Assembly: GCA_013335095.1 (NCBI GenBank)
Contig: JAAXWF010000002.1
Span: forward strand, 205,566 to 269,565
DNA from: a candidate division WWE3 bacterium
GTDB lineage: Bacteria; Patescibacteriota; 4484-211; GCA-002791395
Direction of reading: 5' to 3'
DNA length: 64,000 nucleotides
Positions 2,777 through 21,362 of the stretch are shown piece after piece (the stretch's first letter is position 1; each line of letters starts with the position of its first letter). The position numbers were made by a program, and so were the translations under genes. Below the pieces are notes generated by a model. It was not told where the DNA came from. It saw only the letters and a list, made by a program, of their open reading frames with translations, and did no database searches.

Positions 2777-2867
2777 TCACCTCCTTTGAATTTACTCTAA
2801 CCCTCGGTACATAAAAAAGCAATCTTGTAGTTTATCACACGAGATATACCAGATATACTAACAAGAT

Positions 2868-3857
2868 ATGGAAAAACAATCAAAGATAGTCAGCTTAATC
2901 AATTTTATTCGTAAACCGATCTATCCTAATGAAATCAGTACCGATTCTTTTGCCCATAAATTCTGGACCGTCATTCAGTTTTTGTCATTGCACTATGCGA
3001 TATCGATACCTTTTGGAATTCTAATTGTTGTAATACTAACAGCGGTAAATTATCCGGTTGAAAATCATTCCGTAGTTAATTTTTTTTCCAATGAACCATG
3101 GTACTTTACTCTCTTAGTCGGCAGCATATTAGCTCCGATAATTGAAGAGTTGACGTTTAGACTTCCGCTTCGGTATTCCGCGCTCAATGTGAGTGTGTTT
3201 ATAGGGTTTGTTAGCTTACTTATCTTCCAGCTTATGGACGAGCTAAACCTACCGTTCATGGACCTTATACCAGAGCAAATTCGATCAGTTGGCATATTAT
3301 CGGGAGGACCAATATTCACTGCAAGTTTTAGTGTAGGTATTCTAATTTTATTTTTGATCGTGCGCCAATTCATAAAAAAAGACGCCGCCCTCGGTTGGTA
3401 TAGTCGCCATGTTGGTGTGTTGTTTTACCTGTCTGCACTATCGTTTGGATTTGTGCATCTTGAAAATTACACCGGGCTTGGTACGTTGATTTTTCTGGCT
3501 CCGATATTAGTCGCACCACAAATCATCGGGGGTTTGATGTGGGGGTATCTCAGAATACGCTATGGCTTTGGATGGTCGATTTTAATCCATTCATTGTATA
3601 ACTTCATTGGTATTGTTCCGTTTACCATCCTTTCATTTGCATCCGAGCGATTAACCGACTTTTTAAACAAACCAACAGCACTGACTCTCATGAACCTGAC
3701 CGAATATGACAAAGCCATCCTAATGATTGCCGCAGCCGTCACCTCGGCAATTGCGCTGATATTATTAGTTGCCCTTATCAGCATCGTTTTAGATTGGTAC
3801 GCTCATCGCCCCGTGCGTCAACCAATCATCCGCGAAGACAAGAGTGCGATACAATAA
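2868..3857 (+). CDS. CPBP family (CAAX protease / Abi-like) intramembrane metalloprotease
   Basis: Polytopic membrane protein with the three CPBP motifs in order: EELTFR (EExxxR), FGFVHL (FxxxH), HSLYNF (HxxxN). Confidence 0.7.
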   Translation: MEKQSKIVSLINFIRKPIYPNEISTDSFAHKFWTVIQFLSLHYAISIPFGILIVVILTAVNYPVENHSVVNFFSNEPWYFTLLVGSILAPIIEELTFRLPLRYSALNVSVFIGFVSLLIFQLMDELNLPFMDLIPEQIRSVGILSGGPIFTASFSVGILILFLIVRQFIKKDAALGWYSRHVGVLFYLSALSFGFVHLENYTGLGTLIFLAPILVAPQIIGGLMWGYLRIRYGFGWSILIHSLYNFIGIVPFTILSFASERLTDFLNKPTALTLMNLTEYDKAILMIAAAVTSAIALILLVALISIVLDWYAHRPVRQPIIREDKSAIQ

Positions 3858-4162: not shown

Positions 4163-7100
4163 TTAATCAGCCTTTTTAGGAGATTCAGCTGACTTGGAAT
4201 GAAGTTTATCACTAACACTTCGGAACGCGACATAAAGTATCGGAGAAATGATGAGTGACACAAACCCAGAGGTAAACAATCCACTCACAATAACTAACGA
4301 TAATGATCGATACAGCTCGGAGAACAAAATCAACGGAAGTGTTGAAACAAGAGTCGTTATCTTGGTCAAGATTATCGGACGAAACCGAACTCCAGAGGCA
4401 TACGCAATCGCATCTTTATAATTCCATCCCTGGCGAACTTTTTGATTAGCACCATCAATAAGGAAGATCGCCACGTTTTCAACAATTCCGACCAAAATAA
4501 TCACACCAATAATCTCAAGGAAGCCAAGCTGCCCACCCGCCAAATATGCGAGTGCCGGGAAGATGCCGATAAAGGTAAGTGGAATGGCAAATAGAATCAC
4601 CAACGGCAAACTAAATGAATTAAAGAATACGACGAGAATCCCATACGTAAGGACTATCGCCAAAAGAAGGGCCAACCCAAGTTCTTTAAACGACTTACCC
4701 ATAGATGCGGTATCGCCTTCGGAATATACCTCAACCACTGTTTCATCATCATAATATTCTTTGTAATCATCATTAAATGATTTGATTACCAACGATTGAA
4801 TCGTTCCGACATTTGCCTGGTCAGTAAAATCGGTCTTAGGTTTAGCATTAACCACTCCAATAACTTCACCATTTACTCGCCGTATTGATGGGGGAGATTC
4901 TACCGTCGAAATAGAAGCGACATCAGAAAGTGGCACCGACGTACCGCGCACGCTGGTTAACGTAACGTTTTTCAGATCATCAATACTCGCAGGAGCCTCT
5001 TTATCTGATTCAAGTTTAATGTCTAATTCCGTTTCACCAGTTTTAAGCACAGCAACTCGTTTACCACCATTAACAGAATACAGATTAGAAATAATTTGTT
5101 GAACAGCAAATGGCTGGATACCGTTACTTACTAATTTCTCTCGATCCAATAAGACTTGAACAAAGGTAGTGGCACTATCATCGTAGCCGTTATCAACGCG
5201 TTCTATAACTTTATTTGAAGCCGAACATTGTTGGTCTATCGTTATGGCATTATCGCCATCTTTACACACGCTATTTAAAATTTTGGTGACGTCTTCAGCG
5301 ATTTGGCGTTGGACATCCAGATCAGGGTTTTTAATCCCCAGCGCAATCGGATAAGCCGAATTTTGAGGACCAGGTCCTAGAACATTAACTGTAATATCGC
5401 TGAATCGAGATCCAACATCTTTTAGCTTTGTCCGTAAACGCTCCGCAACGTCGGTAGCTGTGGTATCAACCCGATCGTTACGATCAACTAATTTGACCAT
5501 GTATCCACCAGCTCCCCGAGTGGAAAAAGGCGAAACATCTTTAACTGCCGAATCTTTCATAATCTGTGAGACCAATGCCTTTTCGTCAGATACAATTTGA
5601 TCTTTGGTTAGCTGAGGACGAAGCGTCGCCGAGATTAATAACGAGTCGCCGTCTTCAGGTTGAGCGAATTGAACCGATTTAACTTGACCTGTTCCCATGT
5701 AAAAGCCGGCCGTACCGACAGATAAAACCAATGCCAAAACGACAATAACAACCCGAATCCATGCCGGTGCATATAAGATCTTTTTGTTAAGCCAGGCCAT
5801 GCCACGGGCAATACTCCACAGATTCTTTTCTTCATCATCTGATGACGATTCACCCCGGCGCAAAAAAATGCCGCCAAACCAAGCCAAAAATACAATCGGA
5901 ACAACATAAGAACCAATGATCGCTGGAATTACGGTGAGTGGAATGTATGAAATAATTTGTCCGAAGACACCCGACACCACTCCAAATGGGAAGAATACAA
6001 TCAGCGAGGTCACGACGGCAAGGACAAGCCCCCAGCCGATTTCATCGACGGCAGCAATCACCGCATCTTTGCCGCTTAATCCACTATCAATCTTGCGCTG
6101 GATAGCCTCGAGCACTACTAATGCCGGATCAACAACCAGCCCAATAACTAAGACCAATGAAAAAAGAACTAATGTATTTAAGTCATTGCCAGTTGCGGCA
6201 ACCCAAATTGTCGAAAAAGAAAATGATAATGGAACTGCAAAAGCCGAAATCAACGCCGCTCGCCAGCTCACGAGTGCGAGCATGGCAAGGAACACGAGTT
6301 GAATACCTCCAAAGATATATCCGATCCAACCCAATGGAATATCCCACTTGCCACCAATCATACCCGAGATAACTTCTTCGACCTGCTTTTGATTATCCTC
6401 AGCCACGTTATATGTTTTGACTAACTCATATTGGCGGAAAATAAGTTGATTCTGCGATGTCAGCGTTTTAAATGACGTCGATGCCGCATCGAAATACTTT
6501 TCAATTATCGACTTCAGGCGTAGATCGTATTCAGACAACGGAACATCATCGGCGATATCAATACTAAAAGAGATACCCTCGCTCACTACATCTGCTCCGC
6601 GATTTTGGAAACCGATCACACTCGGAGACTCTTCGGTATCGTACGTTTCTTTTATATCGGCGATGTCACGAAGCCTTACTATTGAAGGAGCGGTCGGTCC
6701 GTTTGCGGCCCCGACCAATTGAATAGCTCCAAAATCATCCAGCGATTTACCAGAAATCGACAAATTAATGTTGTATGTCTTGTCATCCAGATTGGCGTCT
6801 TGCACAACCGGAAGAGTTAAACCCCACGATTTGAGTTGTTCAATAATGCTTTGAGTAGTTAATCCTGCTTTAACAACATCACTATTTCGTAATGTTACTG
6901 AAATTTCTTTTTTAATCTCATTATTCAAGGTTATGCTGGCAACCGCTGAATCTTTTTCGACTTCTTTACGAAACATCTCGAATACCTGATACATTTCGGC
7001 AGGTCGATACTCAACATCTTTTGGTACTAAGGAAAAATAATATTCATCGCCACTTACTTTTGGCGTATATACAGTAGTTTTATCAACTCCATCAGGTAAC

Positions 7101-7486
7101 GTAACCGAACCAATCGCCGAGTCGATCTCACTTTTTACGCTTTGTAAATTAGCGCCAGTATTTAGATTAACGACAATGCTCGATACGTTATCAAGAGAGT
7201 TTGAATTTACACTTTTAACACCATCGACTTGAGTAATTTCGCTTTCGAGCGGTCTGGTAACTTGTTCCATCACCGTCGATGATGAGGCACCAGGATAAAG
7301 GGTATTTACCACAATAATGTCGATTGTTGGTGAAGGGAACCCGGTGGTTCGAAGCATAAATATCGAACCGATACCAAACACTACCAGGATGACTAGTAAT
7401 AATAAAGTGATGCGGGCACGATTTAAGAAAAATCGCGTAATACGCGCATTAAGCGAGATTGGTGGGGCAGTGTAATTTTTTACCAT
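4163..7486 (-). CDS. RND superfamily efflux transporter permease (AcrB-like, 12 TM, two large loops)
   Basis: 1107 aa. TM-loop-TM6 organisation repeated twice. AcrB-like TM4 and TM10 motifs VIGLVVDPALVVLEAI and GIVENVAIFLID. No membrane fusion protein or outer-membrane factor adjacent. Confidence 0.8.
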   Translation of the reverse strand: MVKNYTAPPISLNARITRFFLNRARITLLLLVILVVFGIGSIFMLRTTGFPSPTIDIIVVNTLYPGASSSTVMEQVTRPLESEITQVDGVKSVNSNSLDNVSSIVVNLNTGANLQSVKSEIDSAIGSVTLPDGVDKTTVYTPKVSGDEYYFSLVPKDVEYRPAEMYQVFEMFRKEVEKDSAVASITLNNEIKKEISVTLRNSDVVKAGLTTQSIIEQLKSWGLTLPVVQDANLDDKTYNINLSISGKSLDDFGAIQLVGAANGPTAPSIVRLRDIADIKETYDTEESPSVIGFQNRGADVVSEGISFSIDIADDVPLSEYDLRLKSIIEKYFDAASTSFKTLTSQNQLIFRQYELVKTYNVAEDNQKQVEEVISGMIGGKWDIPLGWIGYIFGGIQLVFLAMLALVSWRAALISAFAVPLSFSFSTIWVAATGNDLNTLVLFSLVLVIGLVVDPALVVLEAIQRKIDSGLSGKDAVIAAVDEIGWGLVLAVVTSLIVFFPFGVVSGVFGQIISYIPLTVIPAIIGSYVVPIVFLAWFGGIFLRRGESSSDDEEKNLWSIARGMAWLNKKILYAPAWIRVVIVVLALVLSVGTAGFYMGTGQVKSVQFAQPEDGDSLLISATLRPQLTKDQIVSDEKALVSQIMKDSAVKDVSPFSTRGAGGYMVKLVDRNDRVDTTATDVAERLRTKLKDVGSRFSDITVNVLGPGPQNSAYPIALGIKNPDLDVQRQIAEDVTKILNSVCKDGDNAITIDQQCSASNKVIERVDNGYDDSATTFVQVLLDREKLVSNGIQPFAVQQIISNLYSVNGGKRVAVLKTGETELDIKLESDKEAPASIDDLKNVTLTSVRGTSVPLSDVASISTVESPPSIRRVNGEVIGVVNAKPKTDFTDQANVGTIQSLVIKSFNDDYKEYYDDETVVEVYSEGDTASMGKSFKELGLALLLAIVLTYGILVVFFNSFSLPLVILFAIPLTFIGIFPALAYLAGGQLGFLEIIGVIILVGIVENVAIFLIDGANQKVRQGWNYKDAIAYASGVRFRPIILTKITTLVSTLPLILFSELYRSLSLVIVSGLFTSGFVSLIISPILYVAFRSVSDKLHSKSAESPKKAD

Positions 7487-7551
7487 GCAAAGTGGACACT
7501 ATAACTATTGTCCGAACCTGGTAAAAAGTCAAGTTGGTTTGCTATGAAGGT

Positions 7552-8073
7552 TTATTTAACGGTAATTGTCAGTACAGATTCATCGCTGCCATGGGCTGAT
7601 TCATCAAGGTGATTATGGACCTCCCATGTACCTGGAACCGAAAACGTAAATACGAAATGACCATTAGCAGCTAATTCACCCGAGTCCATATATCCGTCAT
7701 GATCATCGTGTGAACCAGTGGCTAAAAGAATTGGATCAGTACTGTTATTAACAAAATCAACGATATCTCCAACATGTAATGAAAGTATTGGGGATAAGAA
7801 ACCTTGTTGTTGCCAGGAAACGACGGTGGGCTGTTTTACGCTTTGGTCATCTGCACTAGGACTCGTATTTATACGTTCTAAATATCCAGTTGCCTGAGGT
7901 GCTCGAGAAGGTGATGGCGTTGGTGACGTTCGCGTATTCGTTGAACGGGGTGCGGGGCTATTCACATATTCGTTAGAAAGAACGTACAACGCGCAACCAA
8001 TTGTTACCAAAGCGGCAACAATAATAATGATCAAAATATAAGGTGATGACGCATTTGACGACTTATCATCCAT
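7552..8073 (-). CDS. membrane-anchored exported protein with His/Asp-rich cupredoxin-like beta domain (hypothetical)
   Basis: N-terminal TM, P/S/T linker, C-terminal approx 90 aa with HVGDIVDFVNN...SHDDHDGYMDSG...EVHNHLDESAHG. Lies immediately upstream of, and co-directional with, the RND pump. Confidence 0.35.
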   Translation of the reverse strand: MDDKSSNASSPYILIIIIVAALVTIGCALYVLSNEYVNSPAPRSTNTRTSPTPSPSRAPQATGYLERINTSPSADDQSVKQPTVVSWQQQGFLSPILSLHVGDIVDFVNNSTDPILLATGSHDDHDGYMDSGELAANGHFVFTFSVPGTWEVHNHLDESAHGSDESVLTITVK

Positions 8074-14636: not shown

Positions 14637-15466
14637 GCAGCAGATATGTATGCCGGTGGAGTTTTCTTTCCTTGGTTTTGTTCGTGGACAATTTGATGGA
14701 GTTTTTCCCAATCGAGTCGATACATGAGTCTGTTTGGTTTATTGATGGCATCTTGGAGTATGAATCCTGATTTTTCTACGATTCGTTTTGATGCGTCGTT
14801 TTGGGGGTCGATGTAGGCGATTACTTCGGTGATGGGGTGTGAGTAGCGTTGCGTTAGTTCGGCTTCGAAGGTTTGTCGATCGGCTAGTTCATCTTCGATG
14901 GTGTACTGGGGATTTTCGGTGCGTTTTTGCTGAAGTTGTTTTTCAAATTTGGCTTTTGCGTTTGATTCACGTTTTACGTCTCCAAGAGCAGTGGCGCGGG
15001 ATAGCATTAAGCACGATGCAATGACTCCGTCAACCATGCTGCCGCCGTGACTTTCGGGAGCACGGGCGTAGGTGATCGAGAAGACCGGAGTTTCTTCTGG
15101 TTCGATGTCTTGTTTTTCGGCGAGGTATCGTTTGGTTTGGAGGTCGGGAGCAAAGTAGACGATGCCGTCGATTTCACCGGTATGCTCGGTGGATTGTTCG
15201 GGAGTTTCGGTTACGGCGTAGCTTATGATGCCGGCTTCATCACTGGCGATCATTTGTTGAACTTCGTCGCTTAATGGTTCGCCTAAAAACTGTTCGGCGT
15301 TTGGGCTGCTAAATGATTCATGCATCCGGCGCATATCCTCGGGGTTTGAGGCATCGATTCGGCGTACAGCGGCCCGACCGACTCCAACAAATTCCCACTG
15401 AGTGCGTGGCTTTTCGGTCGATGATTCCTGTTTTGATTCTGGGGATTTGTATGTTTCGTTGTGCAT
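14633..15466 (-). CDS. GNAT-like acetyltransferase domain protein (tentative)
   Basis: C-terminal IAYIDPQNDASKRIVEKSGF resembles the GNAT motif (N..S.R..EK.GF). The remainder is diverged. The + strand ORFs here are G/F/V-rich antisense artefacts. Confidence 0.35.
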   Translation of the reverse strand: MHNETYKSPESKQESSTEKPRTQWEFVGVGRAAVRRIDASNPEDMRRMHESFSSPNAEQFLGEPLSDEVQQMIASDEAGIISYAVTETPEQSTEHTGEIDGIVYFAPDLQTKRYLAEKQDIEPEETPVFSITYARAPESHGGSMVDGVIASCLMLSRATALGDVKRESNAKAKFEKQLQQKRTENPQYTIEDELADRQTFEAELTQRYSHPITEVIAYIDPQNDASKRIVEKSGFILQDAINKPNRLMYRLDWEKLHQIVHEQNQGKKTPPAYISAA

Positions 15467-15560
15467 AGTATTTATCCTACACCTTTATGCACATGAGAGT
15501 GCTCGTCGGTTTTTTATAGTACGATAGTAAATAACAATAAAAGGGAGTACTATAAAGACA

Positions 15561-16112
15561 ATGCTCCTCCCTTCTAAATGGATGTATGGTTTGATTGGTT
15601 TTTCGATACTTACAATAACTCTTGTTTCAGGTGCGATATATAAACAAAGTACAAATAATACGGAACAAGAACCACTACATCAAACAGAATCAAAAATCCA
15701 AGGGTTGCGTACGGTAAATAATGACAGTGATTCTGGAGATAGTGCACAGGATATTGATGAGAGTGCCATAGAACAAGACTCCCTTGAACCTACAATTACG
15801 GATATGCCCACCATAACGCCGATCCCAACCGATCAACCACCAACAGTTACGGCGATAAATACTCCAGTACCGACCAATACCCCGAGACTACAACCGACTG
15901 CAATCCCAACAGTAGTACCGACGAATACACCACGTCCGATTGAGCCAACGGCAAGACAAGCTGCGTATGTGTGTGACTGTAGTAAAACGTGTAAACAAAT
16001 TAGCACTTGCCAAGAAGCGCAATATCAATTGACCACGTGTAACTGCACCGCTAGAGATGGTGATGATGATGGAATTGCTTGCGACGGTGCGCCTCTGAAT
16101 TGTCAAAGATAA
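15561..16112 (+). CDS. membrane-anchored PT-rich protein with C-terminal Excalibur Ca-binding domain
   Basis: C-terminus CKQISTCQEAQYQLTTCNCTARDGDDDGIACDG matches the Excalibur signature (C...AQ...D.DGDG.ACE). Confidence 0.5.
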   Translation: MLLPSKWMYGLIGFSILTITLVSGAIYKQSTNNTEQEPLHQTESKIQGLRTVNNDSDSGDSAQDIDESAIEQDSLEPTITDMPTITPIPTDQPPTVTAINTPVPTNTPRLQPTAIPTVVPTNTPRPIEPTARQAAYVCDCSKTCKQISTCQEAQYQLTTCNCTARDGDDDGIACDGAPLNCQR

Positions 16113-16130
16113 AGTGTATAATCCCAAATA

Positions 16131-16490
16131 ATGAGTTCAAGTAATGACCAATTAACTTTACGAATTCGTCGAATCATTGATTTTAGAGATGCTCGTGACT
16201 GGAAGCAGTTTCATAATCCAAAAGATATATCAATTTCTCTTGTTCTTGAAGCGACCGAAGTCTTGGAACATTTTCAATGGAAAAATAAAGAAGAGATGGA
16301 AGAACACATTAAAAAAAATAAAGATTCTATAGGGGAGGAACTTGCCGATGTACTCTACTGGATTCTATTGATGTGCCATGATCTTAAAATAGATATATTA
16401 GCTGCACTTGACGATAAACTAAAAAAAAATGAACAAAAATACCCAGTAGAAAAGGCAAGAGGAAACCATACCAAATACAACAAGTTATGA
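16131..16490 (+). CDS. MazG-like nucleotide pyrophosphohydrolase (all-alpha NTP-PPase)
   Basis: ARDWKQFHNPKDISISLVLEATEVLEHFQWK...EELADVLYWILLMCHDLKIDI carries the EExx(E/D) metal-binding helix pair typical of the small MazG/HisE-like family. A TGTATAAT element sits only 8 nt before the ATG (possible leaderless start). Stop overlaps the next start (ATGA). Confidence 0.8.
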   Translation: MSSSNDQLTLRIRRIIDFRDARDWKQFHNPKDISISLVLEATEVLEHFQWKNKEEMEEHIKKNKDSIGEELADVLYWILLMCHDLKIDILAALDDKLKKNEQKYPVEKARGNHTKYNKL

Positions 16491-18343
16491 TACTTTACCA
16501 AGGTTTAGTAAGCGAATTCACAGAGATAATCGAAAATAACCAAATAATACCTACACTTGAAAAAGAATTTAAAAACAAACTTGGTAGAAAATTACCACCG
16601 AATGAATTTAGTGCCTATACGAACTCGTTATCATTTATAGAAAGAATAATCCGTAAATCAAAGGTAGAGAGTAATTGTGGTGTTTTAATTGAATATATTA
16701 TTCCTTCGACTTCAAATCGAATAGATTTCATAATTACGGGATTGAATCAAAATAAAGCAGAAAACTTTATAATTATTGAACTGAAGCAATGGCAGCAAGC
16801 TGAGGCAACAGAACTTGAAAGTTTAGTAACGACGATGTTAGGAGGGAAATTTAAGGATACAGTTCATCCAAGTTATCAAGCGTCATCGTATAAACAGTTC
16901 TTAAATGATTTTAACCCTCACATCTCAGATGGATCCGTTATAGCGAATGCTTGTGCGTACTTACATAATTATCGAAGAAGTGAATACGAACCGCTATTAG
17001 AGCCCCAATATTCCCACGTTGTGAAAGATGCGCCCCTATTCTTTCAGGGGGACACGGATAAGCTAGCCGATTATATAAATGGTAAAGTGGGCTTAGGAAA
17101 CGGGGCTGCGATCATAGACAAAATAGAGCATGGACCGACTAAACCAAGTAAAAAGCTGATTTCTCATGTATCAAAAATAATAAAAGGTAACAAGGAATTT
17201 ATTTTATTAGATGATCAAAAAGTCGCCTATGAAAAAGCATTGTATTTCGCTCGAAAACCAGAAGATAAATCAGTAATAATAATAAAAGGCGGTCCAGGAA
17301 CAGGAAAATCGGTTATTGCAGTAAATTTACTCGCACAATTATTGAAAGATCAAAGGAATGCTATTTTTGTTGCACCAAATGCATCATTTAGAGAGGTTTT
17401 AGTAAAAAAGCTGGCCCAAGAACATTCGCTAATACGTTTGAAAAATTTATTTAAAGGCTCTAGCGGTTTTGTCGAGATTGAACCAAATACATTTGACGCA
17501 TTAATTGTTGATGAGGCACATCGGCTCAAGCAAAAAGGCGCATTTATGTATCATGGCGATAATCAAATAGAGGATATCGTTAGAAAGTCTAAAACTTCTG
17601 TATTCTTCATTGATGATGATCAGATCATCAGGCCGGATGATGTTGGATCTGTTTCCGAAATTAAAAAAATTGCAGAATTGTATGATGCTAAGGTAGAGGA
17701 GATTGAATTAACAGCACAATTTCGATGCTCTGGAGCTGAGGGCTACATTAACTGGATTAATGATGTTTTACATATAAAAGAGACTGCAAACTTCAATGGT
17801 TGGGATAAATCAACGTTTGATTTTAAAATATTTGACGACCCTAATGAGTTACGTCAAGCAATATTAGAAAAACATAACCAAGGTAACTATTCTCGTATTT
17901 TAGCAGGATATGCGTGGAAATGGTCTTTAGCTAATGAAGGTAATGGAAATGCTGAGATAGAAGATATTGAAATACCTGAATTTGACTTTAAAATGCCTTG
18001 GAACTCAAGGAAGGTCGGTTCGACATGGGCTTTGGATACAGACGGAATCCATCAAGCAGGTTGTATCCATACATCCCAAGGCCTAGAGTTTGACTATGTA
18101 GGTGTCATTGTCGGTAAGGATTTAACTTTCAGTTTTGACACGTATTCATACTCAACGAGCGTGATTGAATATAAAGATGTTGCTGGTAAAAAAGGATTAA
18201 AAGATAGACCTGATGAACTAAATAAATATGTCCGCAACATATATAAAACATTAATGACGCGAGGAATAAAAGGATGCTACGTCTATTTCATGGATGTAAA
18301 TGTAAAAAATCATTTTAAAAATAGGCTTCAAAACTCGCATTAA
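16487..18343 (+). CDS. DUF2075-type protein: N-terminal PD-(D/E)xK-like nuclease-fold region plus P-loop ATPase (Schlafen-helicase-like)
   Basis: N-terminal RIDFIITG...NFIIIELKQW is a D...ExK-like motif. Walker A IIKGGPGTGKS and Walker B LIVDEAHRL are present. Overall architecture and length match DUF2075 (from memory). Hairpin terminator follows immediately. Confidence 0.7.
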   Translation: MILYQGLVSEFTEIIENNQIIPTLEKEFKNKLGRKLPPNEFSAYTNSLSFIERIIRKSKVESNCGVLIEYIIPSTSNRIDFIITGLNQNKAENFIIIELKQWQQAEATELESLVTTMLGGKFKDTVHPSYQASSYKQFLNDFNPHISDGSVIANACAYLHNYRRSEYEPLLEPQYSHVVKDAPLFFQGDTDKLADYINGKVGLGNGAAIIDKIEHGPTKPSKKLISHVSKIIKGNKEFILLDDQKVAYEKALYFARKPEDKSVIIIKGGPGTGKSVIAVNLLAQLLKDQRNAIFVAPNASFREVLVKKLAQEHSLIRLKNLFKGSSGFVEIEPNTFDALIVDEAHRLKQKGAFMYHGDNQIEDIVRKSKTSVFFIDDDQIIRPDDVGSVSEIKKIAELYDAKVEEIELTAQFRCSGAEGYINWINDVLHIKETANFNGWDKSTFDFKIFDDPNELRQAILEKHNQGNYSRILAGYAWKWSLANEGNGNAEIEDIEIPEFDFKMPWNSRKVGSTWALDTDGIHQAGCIHTSQGLEFDYVGVIVGKDLTFSFDTYSYSTSVIEYKDVAGKKGLKDRPDELNKYVRNIYKTLMTRGIKGCYVYFMDVNVKNHFKNRLQNSH

Positions 18344-18361
18344 ATAATCAAGCCCACAAAA

Positions 18362-18382
18362 AAAGCCCAATAAGGGCTTTTT
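18362..18382 (+). terminator. rho-independent terminator (AAAAGCCC-AATAA-GGGCTTTTT)
   Basis: Stem-loop followed by a T-run directly after the DUF2075 stop. Confidence 0.6.
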
Positions 18383-18504
18383 CCGACCACGTTCCTAGGT
18401 AGGATGTCCCAACCACGCCACCGTCCGGTGACAGTTCGGAATACAGGTCTTTGTAATTATCATTATAAAGTATTGTGGCAAAGCCCAAACTAATCCCATA
18501 GCAT

Positions 18505-18533
18505 TTGACGGCTCACAACTCCCATACTATAAT
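18505..18533 (+). promoter_or_regulatory. consensus sigma70-type promoter TTGACG-17nt-TATAAT
   Basis: Perfect -35/-10 hexamers with a 17-nt spacer, seen directly. Positioned approx 45 nt upstream of ATG 18582, which has a GGGAGGG RBS. Confidence 0.5.
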
Positions 18534-18581
18534 CAATTGACCGATTTTCGTGGGCATTCGTGCCCCTACACGGGAGGGATT

Positions 18582-19187
18582 ATGTCCCAGAGCTACGTGA
18601 CCGACGGTCAACGCGGTGTCGTAAAACCCCTGGATCTGGACCCGTATGTCCAGATGTTCATGACCATGCGGCGGATTTTGGCCAACGCCTCTGACAACGA
18701 TGCACAGCAGATCATCCGCGCACAGCTCGAGCTTCTAAGAAGCGCCGAGATTGGACGCATCGAAACGATCTTTAGCGCGTTCATGGCCCGGAACATCCTC
18801 AATACCGCAATCCCGGAAATTCTCCTTGGCATGATCAAGGGGAATACGAAGGACGCGTGGTATATAAGGGAACCAGCTCCACCGGTGCCCGATCCGCGGG
18901 AGGCGGTTGAGCCGATCGACCTGGCACCAATCGTTGAACTCCTCATGACCTTACACGCTAGAGCAGGGGGGTACAGCGAAGATGAAACTAGGGCCGAAAT
19001 CCGTGGCCAACTCACCGACACGCTACGACAGGAGCGGGAGCGAATCCAGCTTCTGATTCGGGGCTTGCAAACGGGCACGGGAGCAAACCTCCACCCACTT
19101 CAAGCACTCGAGCTTCTCCATAAAGCGCTTGAAGGAAAATCCATCGAGATATTTCTAGGCGACGGCCAGATCGGCCCGATCCTGTAA
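18582..19187 (+). CDS. hypothetical protein with two approx 45-aa internal repeats (GC-rich, approx 57%)
   Basis: Start chosen at ATG 18582 (RBS GGGAGGGATT) rather than the ORF-track TTG at 18537, which would lie at or before the predicted TSS. Repeats LDLDPYVQMFMTMRRIL...DAQQIIRAQL and IDLAPIVELLMTLHAR...ETRAEIRGQL. Confidence 0.4.
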   Translation: MSQSYVTDGQRGVVKPLDLDPYVQMFMTMRRILANASDNDAQQIIRAQLELLRSAEIGRIETIFSAFMARNILNTAIPEILLGMIKGNTKDAWYIREPAPPVPDPREAVEPIDLAPIVELLMTLHARAGGYSEDETRAEIRGQLTDTLRQERERIQLLIRGLQTGTGANLHPLQALELLHKALEGKSIEIFLGDGQIGPIL

Positions 19188-19238
19188 CCAAAGCCAACAA
19201 AACAAACGGTGTCCACTCATCATGGGTGGGCACCAACT

Positions 19239-21362
19239 TTATCCTGATTGCCGATATTGATGTATCAACAACCCAAGATCATAAATATTCACCATACCGT
19301 CATTGTTAATATCACATCTTCTGGTTAATTCATCCGAACTACTTGTAATGGTTTGTCCATAATGCGACGCTAAAATACCAAGATCAAAAAGATCAACATG
19401 TCCATCCAAATTAATATCACCGACATTATCAACTTTTGTTAATGTTACATTATCAATCCAGAATTCATCCGCACTCGTAGCACTAATTCGAAGCCGGGCA
19501 TCGCTTACCGGTGAATCAAAACCAGACGTAACAAATTCAGTCTCAAAGTGTTGCCACTGTGAAGTCAAATCAGACGGATATTCATTTAACCCATACAACG
19601 TAAACGGACTAACATGCTTTTGCACCGTCATGGTTAAATTACTACCAGCAACAGAACGCCCATCAAATGAAAGAGAATACCGTTGAGCGGGGGATAGTGG
19701 AATGTCGTACTGATACAGTTGAGTATTAGTACCAGCATTAGTAACCGCAATCTGTAATGCATTGGTCGTATCTGAACTCCCTGAATGAATCGAAGCGGTT
19801 CCAGTTCCATTTGTATAAAAAGTCCATGGAGTAATACCTGTTTCAAACGTACTGTTTTTAAGAACATTACCCGAAATAACCGGAGTACTAGTTGGAGAAA
19901 TTGTTACAGTCGGAGTAGGAGTTCGTGTAACGGTTGGCGTAACGGAAGGAATAGGCGTTACCGATATCGAGACGGGTACATCAATTACCTTAACTTCAAA
20001 GCGCGACAAATTGACGGTCTGATTATTTACATACACCGTTACCGGATAATCAACATTATTTGCCAACAAGGTTTTTGACGGAGAGGATATCGCCGAAACT
20101 AAAGTATTAGACCGCGTGGTTTTAAGGAGAGATGTGCCTGTACTAAAATAGTCATGGAACGCCTTAAATACGGCATAATGAGGATACGCCACCCCTCCAC
20201 CAGTTGACGTGATTTGAGAAAACAGACTGTGCGGTATTGTAAGGCCCGCATCGCCCTGAGGCTCCCACAACAGCATTCCTTCACAATTATTTAGCGCCGC
20301 ATTGATATACTCACCTGCGTAATGAGCGGCTGTATATTGGGTGTCGGATCGTGAGGACGCCGCGTAATATTCTGCCCACCAAATTGGAAGTCCACCGGTA
20401 GCATCAGAAATACGTTTAGAAATCTCTCCAATAACATGAGTTTTCTGATTATATTCAAGTAAACTACTGCCTTTATTCACAATGGTATAGCCGAAAGAAA
20501 AATCGAGTGCAACGAAATCAGCACCATGTTTATGCTGATTCCAATAATTTATGACAGTCCAGTTTTTAGGCGTGATTGGATCAGCCGACTGAGCAGGATA
20601 TGCCGGGTTACCTTGAACAATCAAATAGGGGCCACCAATTTTAGCATTTGGCCGAACTGATTTTATTGCATCGTATACCAAGTTGTACATCTCGGTATAT
20701 CCGACATAATCCCAATTACTTTCGGTATTATTCCAAAATCCTTTTAGTTCATTCCACACCTGAAAATAGGTTACATCTGGATACCTCAGTGCCACTTGCT
20801 TAGCTAGCTCAGCGTAATCAGCATAATTACCCGGAAGCGGTGCTTTCTCTAATAGCGTCCAATCAGTATTACCAGAAATTCCCCCTTTCATCCAGTCCGG
20901 CGCACAGCATAAGGTGATAGTAGGGATCCCGAGCTCGCGCGCCAAACTCATTCGTTTGTCTAAACTAGACCAATCATACACACCTTTAGAAGGTTCAGGA
21001 TTAAGCGTTCCCCACCCCATAATATGAACATTTTGAAATGTAGAGCCTTGTTTAATTAAGCTTTTCGCATTTGCTAGCGCCGATGGATTGGGGTTCGATA
21101 CGGTGTCGATTGCGGCATGAGTATGAGTGACACCCATAATAAGTTTACTGACGGCAGCGACTTGATTTGAAACAGTAACCGTAACTTCAGACGCCGCGGC
21201 GGGATGAAGTTTCGGAAATAATACCGAAAGTGAAGTTGCCGAAAATGATCCAAAAGTATTGGCCGAAACAATTAGTAATGCAAGGAATACTAAAAAAGAA
21301 ACACCACTGAATATCAATTCAGATTGAGTCAATGCTGATTTAGCAGTTTTATGTTTCATCAC
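19239..21362 (-). CDS. secreted clan GH-A glycoside hydrolase with CBM4_9-like module and C-terminal dockerin repeats
   Basis: Signal peptide. Catalytic region with FQVWNELKG (NE[P/L] acid/base motif of clan GH-A). PT linker. LKNSTFETGITPWTF... resembles CBM_4_9. C-terminal DINLDGHVDLFDLGILASHYG and DINNDGMVNIYDLGLLIHQY are dockerin repeats. Confidence 0.6.
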   Translation of the reverse strand: MMKHKTAKSALTQSELIFSGVSFLVFLALLIVSANTFGSFSATSLSVLFPKLHPAAASEVTVTVSNQVAAVSKLIMGVTHTHAAIDTVSNPNPSALANAKSLIKQGSTFQNVHIMGWGTLNPEPSKGVYDWSSLDKRMSLARELGIPTITLCCAPDWMKGGISGNTDWTLLEKAPLPGNYADYAELAKQVALRYPDVTYFQVWNELKGFWNNTESNWDYVGYTEMYNLVYDAIKSVRPNAKIGGPYLIVQGNPAYPAQSADPITPKNWTVINYWNQHKHGADFVALDFSFGYTIVNKGSSLLEYNQKTHVIGEISKRISDATGGLPIWWAEYYAASSRSDTQYTAAHYAGEYINAALNNCEGMLLWEPQGDAGLTIPHSLFSQITSTGGGVAYPHYAVFKAFHDYFSTGTSLLKTTRSNTLVSAISSPSKTLLANNVDYPVTVYVNNQTVNLSRFEVKVIDVPVSISVTPIPSVTPTVTRTPTPTVTISPTSTPVISGNVLKNSTFETGITPWTFYTNGTGTASIHSGSSDTTNALQIAVTNAGTNTQLYQYDIPLSPAQRYSLSFDGRSVAGSNLTMTVQKHVSPFTLYGLNEYPSDLTSQWQHFETEFVTSGFDSPVSDARLRISATSADEFWIDNVTLTKVDNVGDINLDGHVDLFDLGILASHYGQTITSSSDELTRRCDINNDGMVNIYDLGLLIHQYRQSG

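Follow-up and report, generated by a model that had tools for sequence, protein, structure and literature searches.

A stretch of 64,000 nucleotides from a candidate division WWE3 bacterium (contig JAAXWF010000002.1, positions 205,566 to 269,565 of the forward strand; the window) contains two overlapping genes on its plus strand, whose possible role in defence against phages is considered here. The first gene (16131..16490) encodes a 119-aa MazG-like protein of the DCTPP1/RS21-C6 type, an all-alpha nucleoside triphosphate (NTP) pyrophosphohydrolase. The second gene (16487..18343) encodes a 618-aa protein in which a PD-(D/E)xK nuclease domain is followed by a superfamily 1B (SF1B) helicase of the DUF2075/Schlafen (SLFN) group 3 type. 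The two open reading frames (ORFs) overlap by the sequence ATGA at 16487..16490 (+), the ATG of the second gene lying within the TGA of the first. Database entries that are 100% identical to both proteins carry only the names "nucleotide pyrophosphohydrolase" and "DUF2075 domain-containing protein". A TATAAT hexamer resembling a -10 element was read from the sequence at 16117..16122 (+), 8 nt 5' of the MazG ATG, and no Shine-Dalgarno sequence was found before this ATG; a leaderless or near-leaderless start of the MazG gene appears plausible. A sigma-70 scan did not call this hexamer, which has no -35 element at the proper spacing. The gap between the upstream gene and the pair is 18 nt long and contains no terminator, and transcription of the pair by read-through from the upstream gene is possible. 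Downstream of the pair, a GC-rich hairpin at 18360..18382 with an A-run and a T-run on either side, readable on both strands, probably represents a bidirectional intrinsic terminator. It has a 9-bp stem and a folding energy of -11.7 kcal/mol (z=-3.4), which none of 200 shuffled sequences equalled; it was not called by a simple terminator scan.

The small protein matched the Pfam family MazG-like PF12643 over all 85 of the 85 profile positions (E=2e-18, 66.8 bits, cut-off 27) and also the MazG family PF03819 (E=2.4e-5). The search of PDB returned the Archaeoglobus fulgidus pyrophosphatase 4qgp (9e-21) and mammalian DCTPP1/RS21-C6 (1e-17). The EExxD site reads E69-E70-L-A-D73 and forms, together with E40 and E43, an ExxE...ExxD tetrad. 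The predicted metal ligands E40 (16248-16250), E43 (16257-16259), E70 (16338-16340) and D73 (16347-16349), all on the plus strand, align with E63, E66, E95 and D98 of DCTPP1, and the pocket tryptophans W24 and W50 with its W47 and W73. The four ligands and two tryptophans were invariant across 26 close MazG homologs; E70 and D73 were kept in all 53 of 53 MazG partners from distant taxa, where the ligands and tryptophans were essentially invariant. The MazG protein is more conserved than its partner, the best homologs showing 70-83% identity as against at most 65%. DCTPP1/RS21-C6 and 4qgp belong to the same all-alpha MazG-like fold family, with all four ligands and both tryptophans aligned, but they are stand-alone housekeeping ("house-cleaning") enzymes, whereas the MazG clade of the window is operonic with DNA nucleases. 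The protein consists of a MazG domain without a sensor or regulatory domain. It had no match in PADLOC at E≤0.01, including the models for dNTP-depletion enzymes (dCTP deaminase, dGTPase).

The C-terminal part of the large protein (aa 261-603; 17267..18295, +) matched the Pfam family SLFN-g3_helicase/DUF2075 PF09848 with E=1.2e-95 and 321 bits (cut-off 24). The Walker A motif GGPGTGKS (17288-17311, +) and the Walker B motif LIVDEAHR with its DEAH box (17501-17524, +) were read from the sequence, and K274, D342 and E343 of this region were invariant among the paired homologs. The full-length AlphaFold 2 (AF2) model had a pLDDT of 82 and a pTM of 0.78, and in a Foldseek search the C-terminal half of this model resembled RecD2 (2e-10), Dna2 (3e-9) and SLFN11 (8e-9), as well as Dda, Upf1 and IGHMBP2. 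The PDB sequence search with the large protein found nothing by single sequence, and the profile found only the P-loop of IGHMBP2. The N-terminal domain (aa 1-238; 16487..17200, +) was assigned to the PD-(D/E)xK superfamily by its restriction-endonuclease-like fold and D...(D/E)xK motif; Pfam gave no match on the N-terminal 258 aa. The catalytic residues of this domain are E69 (16691-16693), D80 (16724-16726) and E98-x-K100 (16778-16786) on the plus strand, and these four residues were invariant in 53 of 53 paired homologs. The family of this nuclease head is small, with 1,406 clusters at 50% identity (690 at E≤1e-10) out of 1.84 billion, and the head was N-terminal in every listed match, in proteins of ~620 or ~800 aa. 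A housekeeping RecD or RecD2 identity was rejected, as the NCBIfam equivalogs gave 24 bits against cut-offs of 310 and 500, and no curated repair helicase family matched the large protein. All three catalytic centres of the pair, that is the pyrophosphohydrolase, the PD-(D/E)xK nuclease and the SF1B ATPase, are intact. An earlier note, made by a model from the letters of this stretch, had described an EExxD-bearing MazG protein coupled through ATGA (119 and 618 aa) to a DUF2075 protein with Walker motifs, a Schlafen-homologous helicase and a D...ExK nuclease-like motif, the whole forming a discrete unit closed by a hairpin; these statements agree with the family matches, the DCTPP1 alignment, the Foldseek match to SLFN11, the invariance of D80/E98/K100, the overlap and the folding of the hairpin given above. 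Its condition that the protein should not be a housekeeping RecD was borne out by the NCBIfam scores.

The distribution of the pair was surveyed from both sides. For the DUF2075 protein, one genome per GTDB species was used, which gave at least 545 relatives, and the best 80 (full length, 40-62% identity) were examined. These 80 span groups of the candidate phyla radiation (CPR), Gammaproteobacteria, Bacteroidota, many Firmicutes, Chloroflexota, Planctomycetota and Spirochaetota, with Methanobrevibacter and Woesearchaeota as archaeal carriers. When MazG was sought around the 80 loci with a MazG profile (two loci being untestable for adjacency), a same-strand MazG gene was found in 57 of 80, and it was directly adjacent to DUF2075 in 52 of 78 testable species loci. 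It was directly upstream in 45 loci (42 called and 3 masked by ORF over-extension), 15 of which had the identical 4-nt overlap, and directly downstream in seven, so that the gene order is not fixed. In five of the 80 loci MazG was within a few kb, and in 21 there was no MazG nearby, which shows that MazG is not obligatory. No consistent substitute for MazG was seen in the latter, the genes there being a DEAD helicase, RtcB, PARG, a methyltransferase and unknowns. From the MazG side, the 80 closest metagenomic relatives (61-80% identity) gave 73 testable loci, with DUF2075 directly downstream in 46 and within ~700 nt in three more. Furthermore, the divergence of the two proteins was correlated (Mantel r=0.39), a value that none of 2000 permutations reached. 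The pair spans more than eight phyla, plus archaea, plasmids and one phage record, and the family is present on 96 plasmid records. These results together show that MazG and DUF2075 form a conserved, translationally coupled and co-inherited unit across phyla; the earlier note had made co-occurrence in other genomes its test beforehand, and both counts (52/78 and 46/73) left the pairing standing.

The phage record is that of Microcystis phage Mwe-JY31 (PP438423.1, 22 kb, L181), which has a MazG-DUF2075 pair at 5657-7863 with 42% identity. It is entered as a complete phage genome and encodes hypothetical proteins throughout; its pair may serve a phage or a satellite as defence cargo, or the record may be a mis-assigned element. 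A phage origin of the pair was rejected, as only two full-length matches in IMG/VR and one or two in GenBank phages were found and the pair is not typically phage-borne. One metagenomic locus (L110) also has a group I catalytic intron at 2785-3054 (+; Rfam RF00028, 87 bits), ~1 kb upstream of MazG.

In its organisation the pair resembles toxin-antitoxin loci, in that a short first gene overlaps a long gene for an effector, and a toxic nuclease-helicase might be restrained until infection by the upstream MazG, either by binding or by removal of a nucleotide cofactor or activator. Such restraint would be consistent with the reported toxicity of AbiO and with full-length Nhi, a protein of the same architecture, being largely inactive in vitro and perhaps needing activation. 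The invariant catalytic residues of MazG indicate, however, an enzyme and not only a binder; the order is inverted in seven loci and MazG is missing in 21, and the MazG clade accompanies unrelated nucleases (HNH, NOV_C), which argues against a specific protein-protein inhibitor. We consider an immunity function of this kind very unlikely.

The genes around the pair in other genomes were then compared. The 135 genes immediately flanking it in the 80 species loci fell into 168 Pfam families, the commonest being Fic, ResIII, PLDc_2, AbiEi, NUDIX, DUF3427, Mrr_cat and DUF2357. A conserved third gene was ruled out by this diversity, MrcB_N having occurred only twice. Strong PADLOC matches among the neighbours included Type IV methyl-directed and Type I restriction enzymes, AbiEi and MkoA/MkoC (Mokosh), and further PbeA, MADS, Hhe, PD-T4-6 and several PDC candidates. 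On a plasmid of Priestia aryabhattai (NZ_CP083270.1; L180 3685-15586) the order is restriction endonuclease, MutT, MrcB_N, MazG, DUF2075 and Type I restriction-modification, the last accompanied by an AAA ATPase; an ABC-three-component system lies beside these genes. The MrcB_N gene of this locus (DUF3578, E=1.5e-51) overlaps MazG, and MrcB_N-MazG-DUF2075 may be a three-gene version of the unit. In a Saccharibacteria chromosome the pair is directly followed by an AAA_15/AAA_23 ATPase, DUF2130, HNH and MazE, and a Paenibacillus locus has a McrB-like gene (MrcB_N and AAA_5) downstream of the pair. Thus, the pair sits in defence islands in other genomes, of which the Priestia plasmid and the Saccharibacteria chromosome are examples.

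The partners of the MazG clade were found to be modular. In 16 MazG-anchored loci the partner matched the helicase part only; among eight of these that were scanned, four had at the N-terminus, in place of the PD-(D/E)xK domain, a GIY-YIG nuclease that Pfam matched weakly, and six had a C-terminal Peptidase_S24 domain. GIY-YIG-DUF2075 proteins, with or without S24, were seen directly downstream of MazG in the metagenome loci L087, L095, L102 and L151, and the MazG partners of such proteins are 71-78% identical to the window MazG. Where this MazG clade has no DUF2075 partner, the MazG stop is overlapped by a gene for an HNH endonuclease (two cases), for a NOV_C-domain protein or for unknown proteins; the HNH and NOV_C coupled loci are L105 (1817-2806), L137 (401-1369) and L134 (4321-5382). 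Near MazG in other DUF2075-less loci are genes for a C5 cytosine methylase and for helicases of the DEAD and PIF1 types. The Bacillus thuringiensis megaplasmid pKK1 (L179 3130-6722) has an NTP-pyrophosphohydrolase, HNH and DUF2075 in a row, its pyrophosphohydrolase being barely similar to the window MazG. The DUF2075 proteins of the B. thuringiensis plasmid were rejected as members of the Nhi-like family, to which they have a BLASTP match of 5e-6, and are a third distant lineage. Across these loci the constant elements are a MazG enzyme and a DNA-targeting nuclease, of which the nuclease head is swappable, and head swapping of this sort is typical of conflict systems.

A LexA/UmuD-like module (Peptidase_S24) was also present at the C-terminus of 18 of the 80 PD-(D/E)xK-type homologs, about a fifth (L002, L005, L006, L022, L024, L033, L036, L038, L048, L051, L056, L057, L059, L062, L067, L070, L076 and L080), and DUF2075 C-termini with this tail were further noted at L087, L095, L102, L115, L150 and L153. 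In this module a cleavage site (A-G or C-G) can be recognised, together with a Ser-Lys dyad of the form GxSM...GK. The nuclease-helicase of the window has no such module. These features suggest self-cleavage, possibly triggered by RecA*, as an activation switch that may license the nuclease in the relatives that carry the tail. An unexplained in-cell truncation of Nhi was noted by Bari et al.

The same tail is part of the case for a role in DNA damage and repair, in which a Dna2-like nuclease-helicase would process damaged or stalled replication intermediates, MazG would sanitise the dNTP pool and some members would be under SOS control via the LexA-like tail. The cleavage site and Ser-Lys dyad of the 18 S24-bearing homologs, the structural similarity to Dna2 and RecD2, the high conservation of MazG, the retention of the pair in reduced CPR genomes and the occurrence of NUDIX/MutT in 3 of the 135 neighbours and once more in the Priestia locus are all in line with such a role. 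A repair function accords less well with the patchy distribution over phyla and archaea, with a nuclease-domain family of only ~1,400 clusters, with plasmid and phage carriage and low GC, and with hypervariable neighbourhoods dominated by restriction and abortive-infection genes; the swapping of nuclease heads and the lack of a match to any curated repair helicase family also count against it. Repair as the primary function is, in our view, unlikely.

The division of labour between the two proteins was considered in the light of single-gene defence proteins of the same architecture (Nhi, AbiO and Nhi-like), whose existence the earlier note had overlooked. It had proposed a defence module in which a nuclease-like DUF2075 sensor drives a nucleotide-targeting effector. 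The status of a candidate defence module is supported, and the proposed wiring is probably wrong: the single-gene architecture, the invariant nuclease and ATPase residues of the large protein and the homologs, about a quarter, that have no MazG speak against its being a mere sensor. For the same reasons the nuclease-helicase is most likely both sensor and effector, with MazG as an accessory. It would load on phage DNA or replication intermediates, translocate with ATP and cut. MazG would act constitutively in the nucleotide pool, converting non-canonical, probably 5-modified dCTP-type dNTPs to the monophosphate. In this way it could take away the special precursor that phages with modified cytosines need, or it could block the salvage of modified nucleotides set free from degraded phage DNA, whose incorporation into host DNA would expose the host itself to attack; the two roles are non-exclusive.

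The substrate of MazG was proposed from two observations. Its closest characterised relatives, the DCTPP1 enzymes, act on 5-modified and abnormal dCTPs, DCTPP1 being known to control 5-methyl-dCTP (PMC4491611) and to hydrolyse abnormal cytosine triphosphates (PMC13510388). In addition, the neighbours are repeatedly readers or makers of modified cytosine or modification-dependent nucleases (MrcB_N, C5 methylase, HNH, NOV_C, DUF3427), the MrcB_N proteins being readers of 5mC. On these grounds non-canonical, probably 5-modified, dCTP-type nucleotides are put forward tentatively as the substrate, at what we would call perhaps one chance in three. A constitutive enzyme with a non-canonical substrate is likelier than an inducible depleter of canonical dNTPs given the small size of the protein, its lack of a regulatory domain and a degree of conservation above that of its partner; inducible depletion of canonical dNTPs by MazG would be toxic.

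Depletion was nevertheless weighed in its conditional form, in which DUF2075 senses phage DNA and activates or recruits MazG, canonical dCTP or dNTPs are depleted and phage replication is starved. MazG is a relative of dNTP pyrophosphatases, translational coupling suggests a complex, and no component is more conserved than the MazG clade, which is found with several different nuclease partners. Defences that deplete dNTPs exist; the dCTP deaminase and dGTPase systems share with the pair the manipulation of the nucleotide pool in phage-host conflict. They are, however, enzyme families unrelated to the window MazG, and they act alone, whereas the window MazG is coupled to a nuclease-helicase. 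T4 gp56 dCTPase is an all-alpha NTP pyrophosphohydrolase that excludes canonical dCTP. A 119-aa MazG without a sensor or regulatory domain and without a match to any PADLOC model, those of dNTP-depletion enzymes included, does not favour starvation as the mechanism; nor does the invariant nuclease site of the partner, which a pure sensor would not need. The same architecture, moreover, defends without MazG in Nhi, AbiO and Nhi-like, and a quarter of the homologs lack MazG. Conditional depletion therefore seems an improbable account of the pair.

We estimate a probability of roughly 0.55 that the locus is a horizontally acquired two-gene module against phages or other mobile genetic elements. 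The GC content of the pair, 0.33-0.35 (0.347 together), is the lowest among the window genes, the others having 0.435 ± 0.045, and it is the GC content alone that suggests acquisition. Several points weigh against this interpretation. The defence role of the MazG-DUF2075 family is read from context and architecture, and the enrichment of defence genes among its neighbours is qualitative, without a genome-wide background. No PADLOC match was found within ±8 kb of the window pair, where there is no recognisable defence island. The PADLOC models of Nhi and AbiO match the ATPase core of the window protein only and not its full length, and its BLASTP match to Nhi-like covers the P-loop only (3e-4), the homology being remote. 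Loci without MazG occur among the closest relatives of the large protein, and NUDIX/MutT neighbours and LexA-like fusions fit a role in DNA damage or repair as well. The modified-cytosine specificity is extrapolated from mammalian DCTPP1 and circumstantial neighbours, and the substrate could be another.

The neighbours of the pair in the window are genes for an Excalibur-domain and a GNAT-like protein, orphan genes, and genes for a protein with GH39, CBM and dockerin domains and for a pilin-like protein; the earlier note had placed the pair among surface-protein genes. A search around 15400-19300 for direct or inverted repeats flanking the pair gave nothing notable, and no tRNA was found nearby; mobile-element borders were thus rejected, as neither repeats nor a tRNA mark an insertion. 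The gene just 3' of the low-GC pair (18537-19187, +) has the highest GC of the window (0.56; 0.65 at third codon positions). It starts with TTG, matches no family and is preceded at 18505-18533 by a sigma-70-like promoter close to consensus (TTGACG-17-TATAAT). The GC mosaic of the window, from 0.33 to 0.56, suggests several acquisitions. The gene at 19239-21362 (-) encodes a 707-aa secreted protein of this WWE3 (CPR) genome, with a GH39/GH42-like glycosidase, CBM_4_9 and a type I dockerin.

On the minus strand, a full-length DUF3800-IX RNA (Rfam RF02968; 51.3 bits against a gathering score of 36.8) was found at 18381-18449, abutting the hairpin at 18360-18382 and convergent with the pair on its downstream side. 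In the minus-strand view the hairpin has a 7-T tail, and the RNA motif is preceded by a TATAAT at a distance of 12 nt; the hairpin is probably a terminator common to the pair and the convergent small RNA. A second copy was found in a metagenomic pair locus (L091 227-297, -; 61.6 bits), 146 nt upstream of MazG and divergent from it, and none in the 36 other pair loci scanned. No DUF3800 gene follows the motif in the window or in the second locus. The RNA was ruled out as a conserved part of the module, being present in the window and in one of 37 other loci only. The two loci in which it adjoins the pair are unrelated.

A coupled dCTP-pyrophosphatase-like partner is new for this class of defence proteins and suggests that nucleotide-pool chemistry, probably of modified cytosines, takes part in the discrimination of phage from self by single-protein nuclease-helicases such as Nhi, AbiO and Nhi-like, or in self-protection. 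The optional LexA-like tail hints at a RecA-linked activation switch for the class. With the spread over bacteria, archaea, CPR and plasmids, thousands of genes labelled "DUF2075" or "nucleotide pyrophosphohydrolase" would gain an annotation once a function is validated. A broader and rather doubtful proposal is that the DCTPP1-type MazG is a hitherto unrecognised, portable immune accessory, one highly conserved clade of which controls the modified-nucleotide pool for DNA-targeting nucleases of at least four folds (PD-(D/E)xK-DUF2075, GIY-YIG-DUF2075, HNH and NOV_C). If this were true, it would mean that restriction of modified-cytosine phages neither fails nor backfires on the host, and that the combination of a human Schlafen-type helicase and DCTPP1 had a bacterial or archaeal immune origin. 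The parallels with human SLFN11 and DCTPP1 are of interest for comparative immunology.

The human Schlafens of group 3 (SLFN11) have a helicase domain homologous to that of the window protein and antiviral and DNA-damage roles. They contain a tRNase (AlbA_2) domain, whereas the window protein has a PD-(D/E)xK domain of DNase-type fold; no Pfam domain of the Schlafen AlbA_2-type ribonuclease (Ex4ExK), the RNase domain by which the Schlafen defences of bacteria are defined, was found in it. In Nhi of Staphylococcus epidermidis (SERP2475) a nuclease activity at the N-terminus goes together with a bidirectional helicase activity; this protein keeps phage DNA from accumulating and was proposed to be sensor plus effector (Bari et al.). 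It likewise combines PD-(D/E)xK and a DUF2075 SF1B helicase in one protein, and its structural neighbours Dda, Upf1 and Dna2 are also those of the window protein. Nhi differs in having no MazG partner and no described S24 variants, and the N-terminal domains of the two proteins have no detectable sequence similarity. The PADLOC model of Nhi (PDLC02372) matched aa 235-469 of the window protein over profile positions 178-379 of 470 (E=2e-15). The best PADLOC match was the AbiO model (PDLC02350; aa 218-469, profile 156-375 of 468, E=7.6e-17), and PDC-S41 matched partially, in the ATPase core. AbiO of Lactococcus, in which a restriction-endonuclease-like domain precedes an SLFN_3-like SF1B helicase and for which toxicity at high copy was reported, is a single-gene abortive-infection system without MazG and has the same domain layout as the window protein.

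Nhi-like (Bacillus cereus FSL H8-0482, gene 2729017301) is a validated single-gene defence (Millman et al. 2022), and it shares with the window protein an N-terminal PD-(D/E)xK domain, a linker, a DUF2075 SF1 helicase, a length of ~610-620 aa and residence in defence islands. The comparison used the first 399 residues of Nhi-like from the Millman supplement, and hhalign gave a colinear alignment of aa 38-347 of the window protein, including E...D...ExK, at 94.7% (E=6e-8, ~21% identity). The Nhi-like homolog table of Millman et al. does not contain the carriers of the pair that were then in IMG (Halomonas halocynthiae DSM 14573, Cohnella sp. OV330, Halalkalicoccus jeotgali and Paenibacillus). 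Because the profile match is remote, the BLASTP match is limited to the P-loop and these carrier genomes are absent from the table, the window protein is assigned to a distinct family in the same architectural class, outside the Nhi-like family. Phages escape Nhi-like through loss or inactivation of their own DNA methylase, which suggests that Nhi-like senses methylated DNA, and this hint fits with the MrcB_N, HNH and methylase neighbours of the MazG-DUF2075 family. The pairing of MazG with DUF2075 as a named system was not found in PADLOC v2 or in the searchable literature, which covers few subscription journals and where the two terms did not occur together; the earlier note had likewise known of no such system. 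Nhi-like is a single gene, and the window family has a coupled MazG in two thirds of its loci; the pair is probably a previously undescribed two-gene form of a known class of single-protein nuclease-helicase defences.

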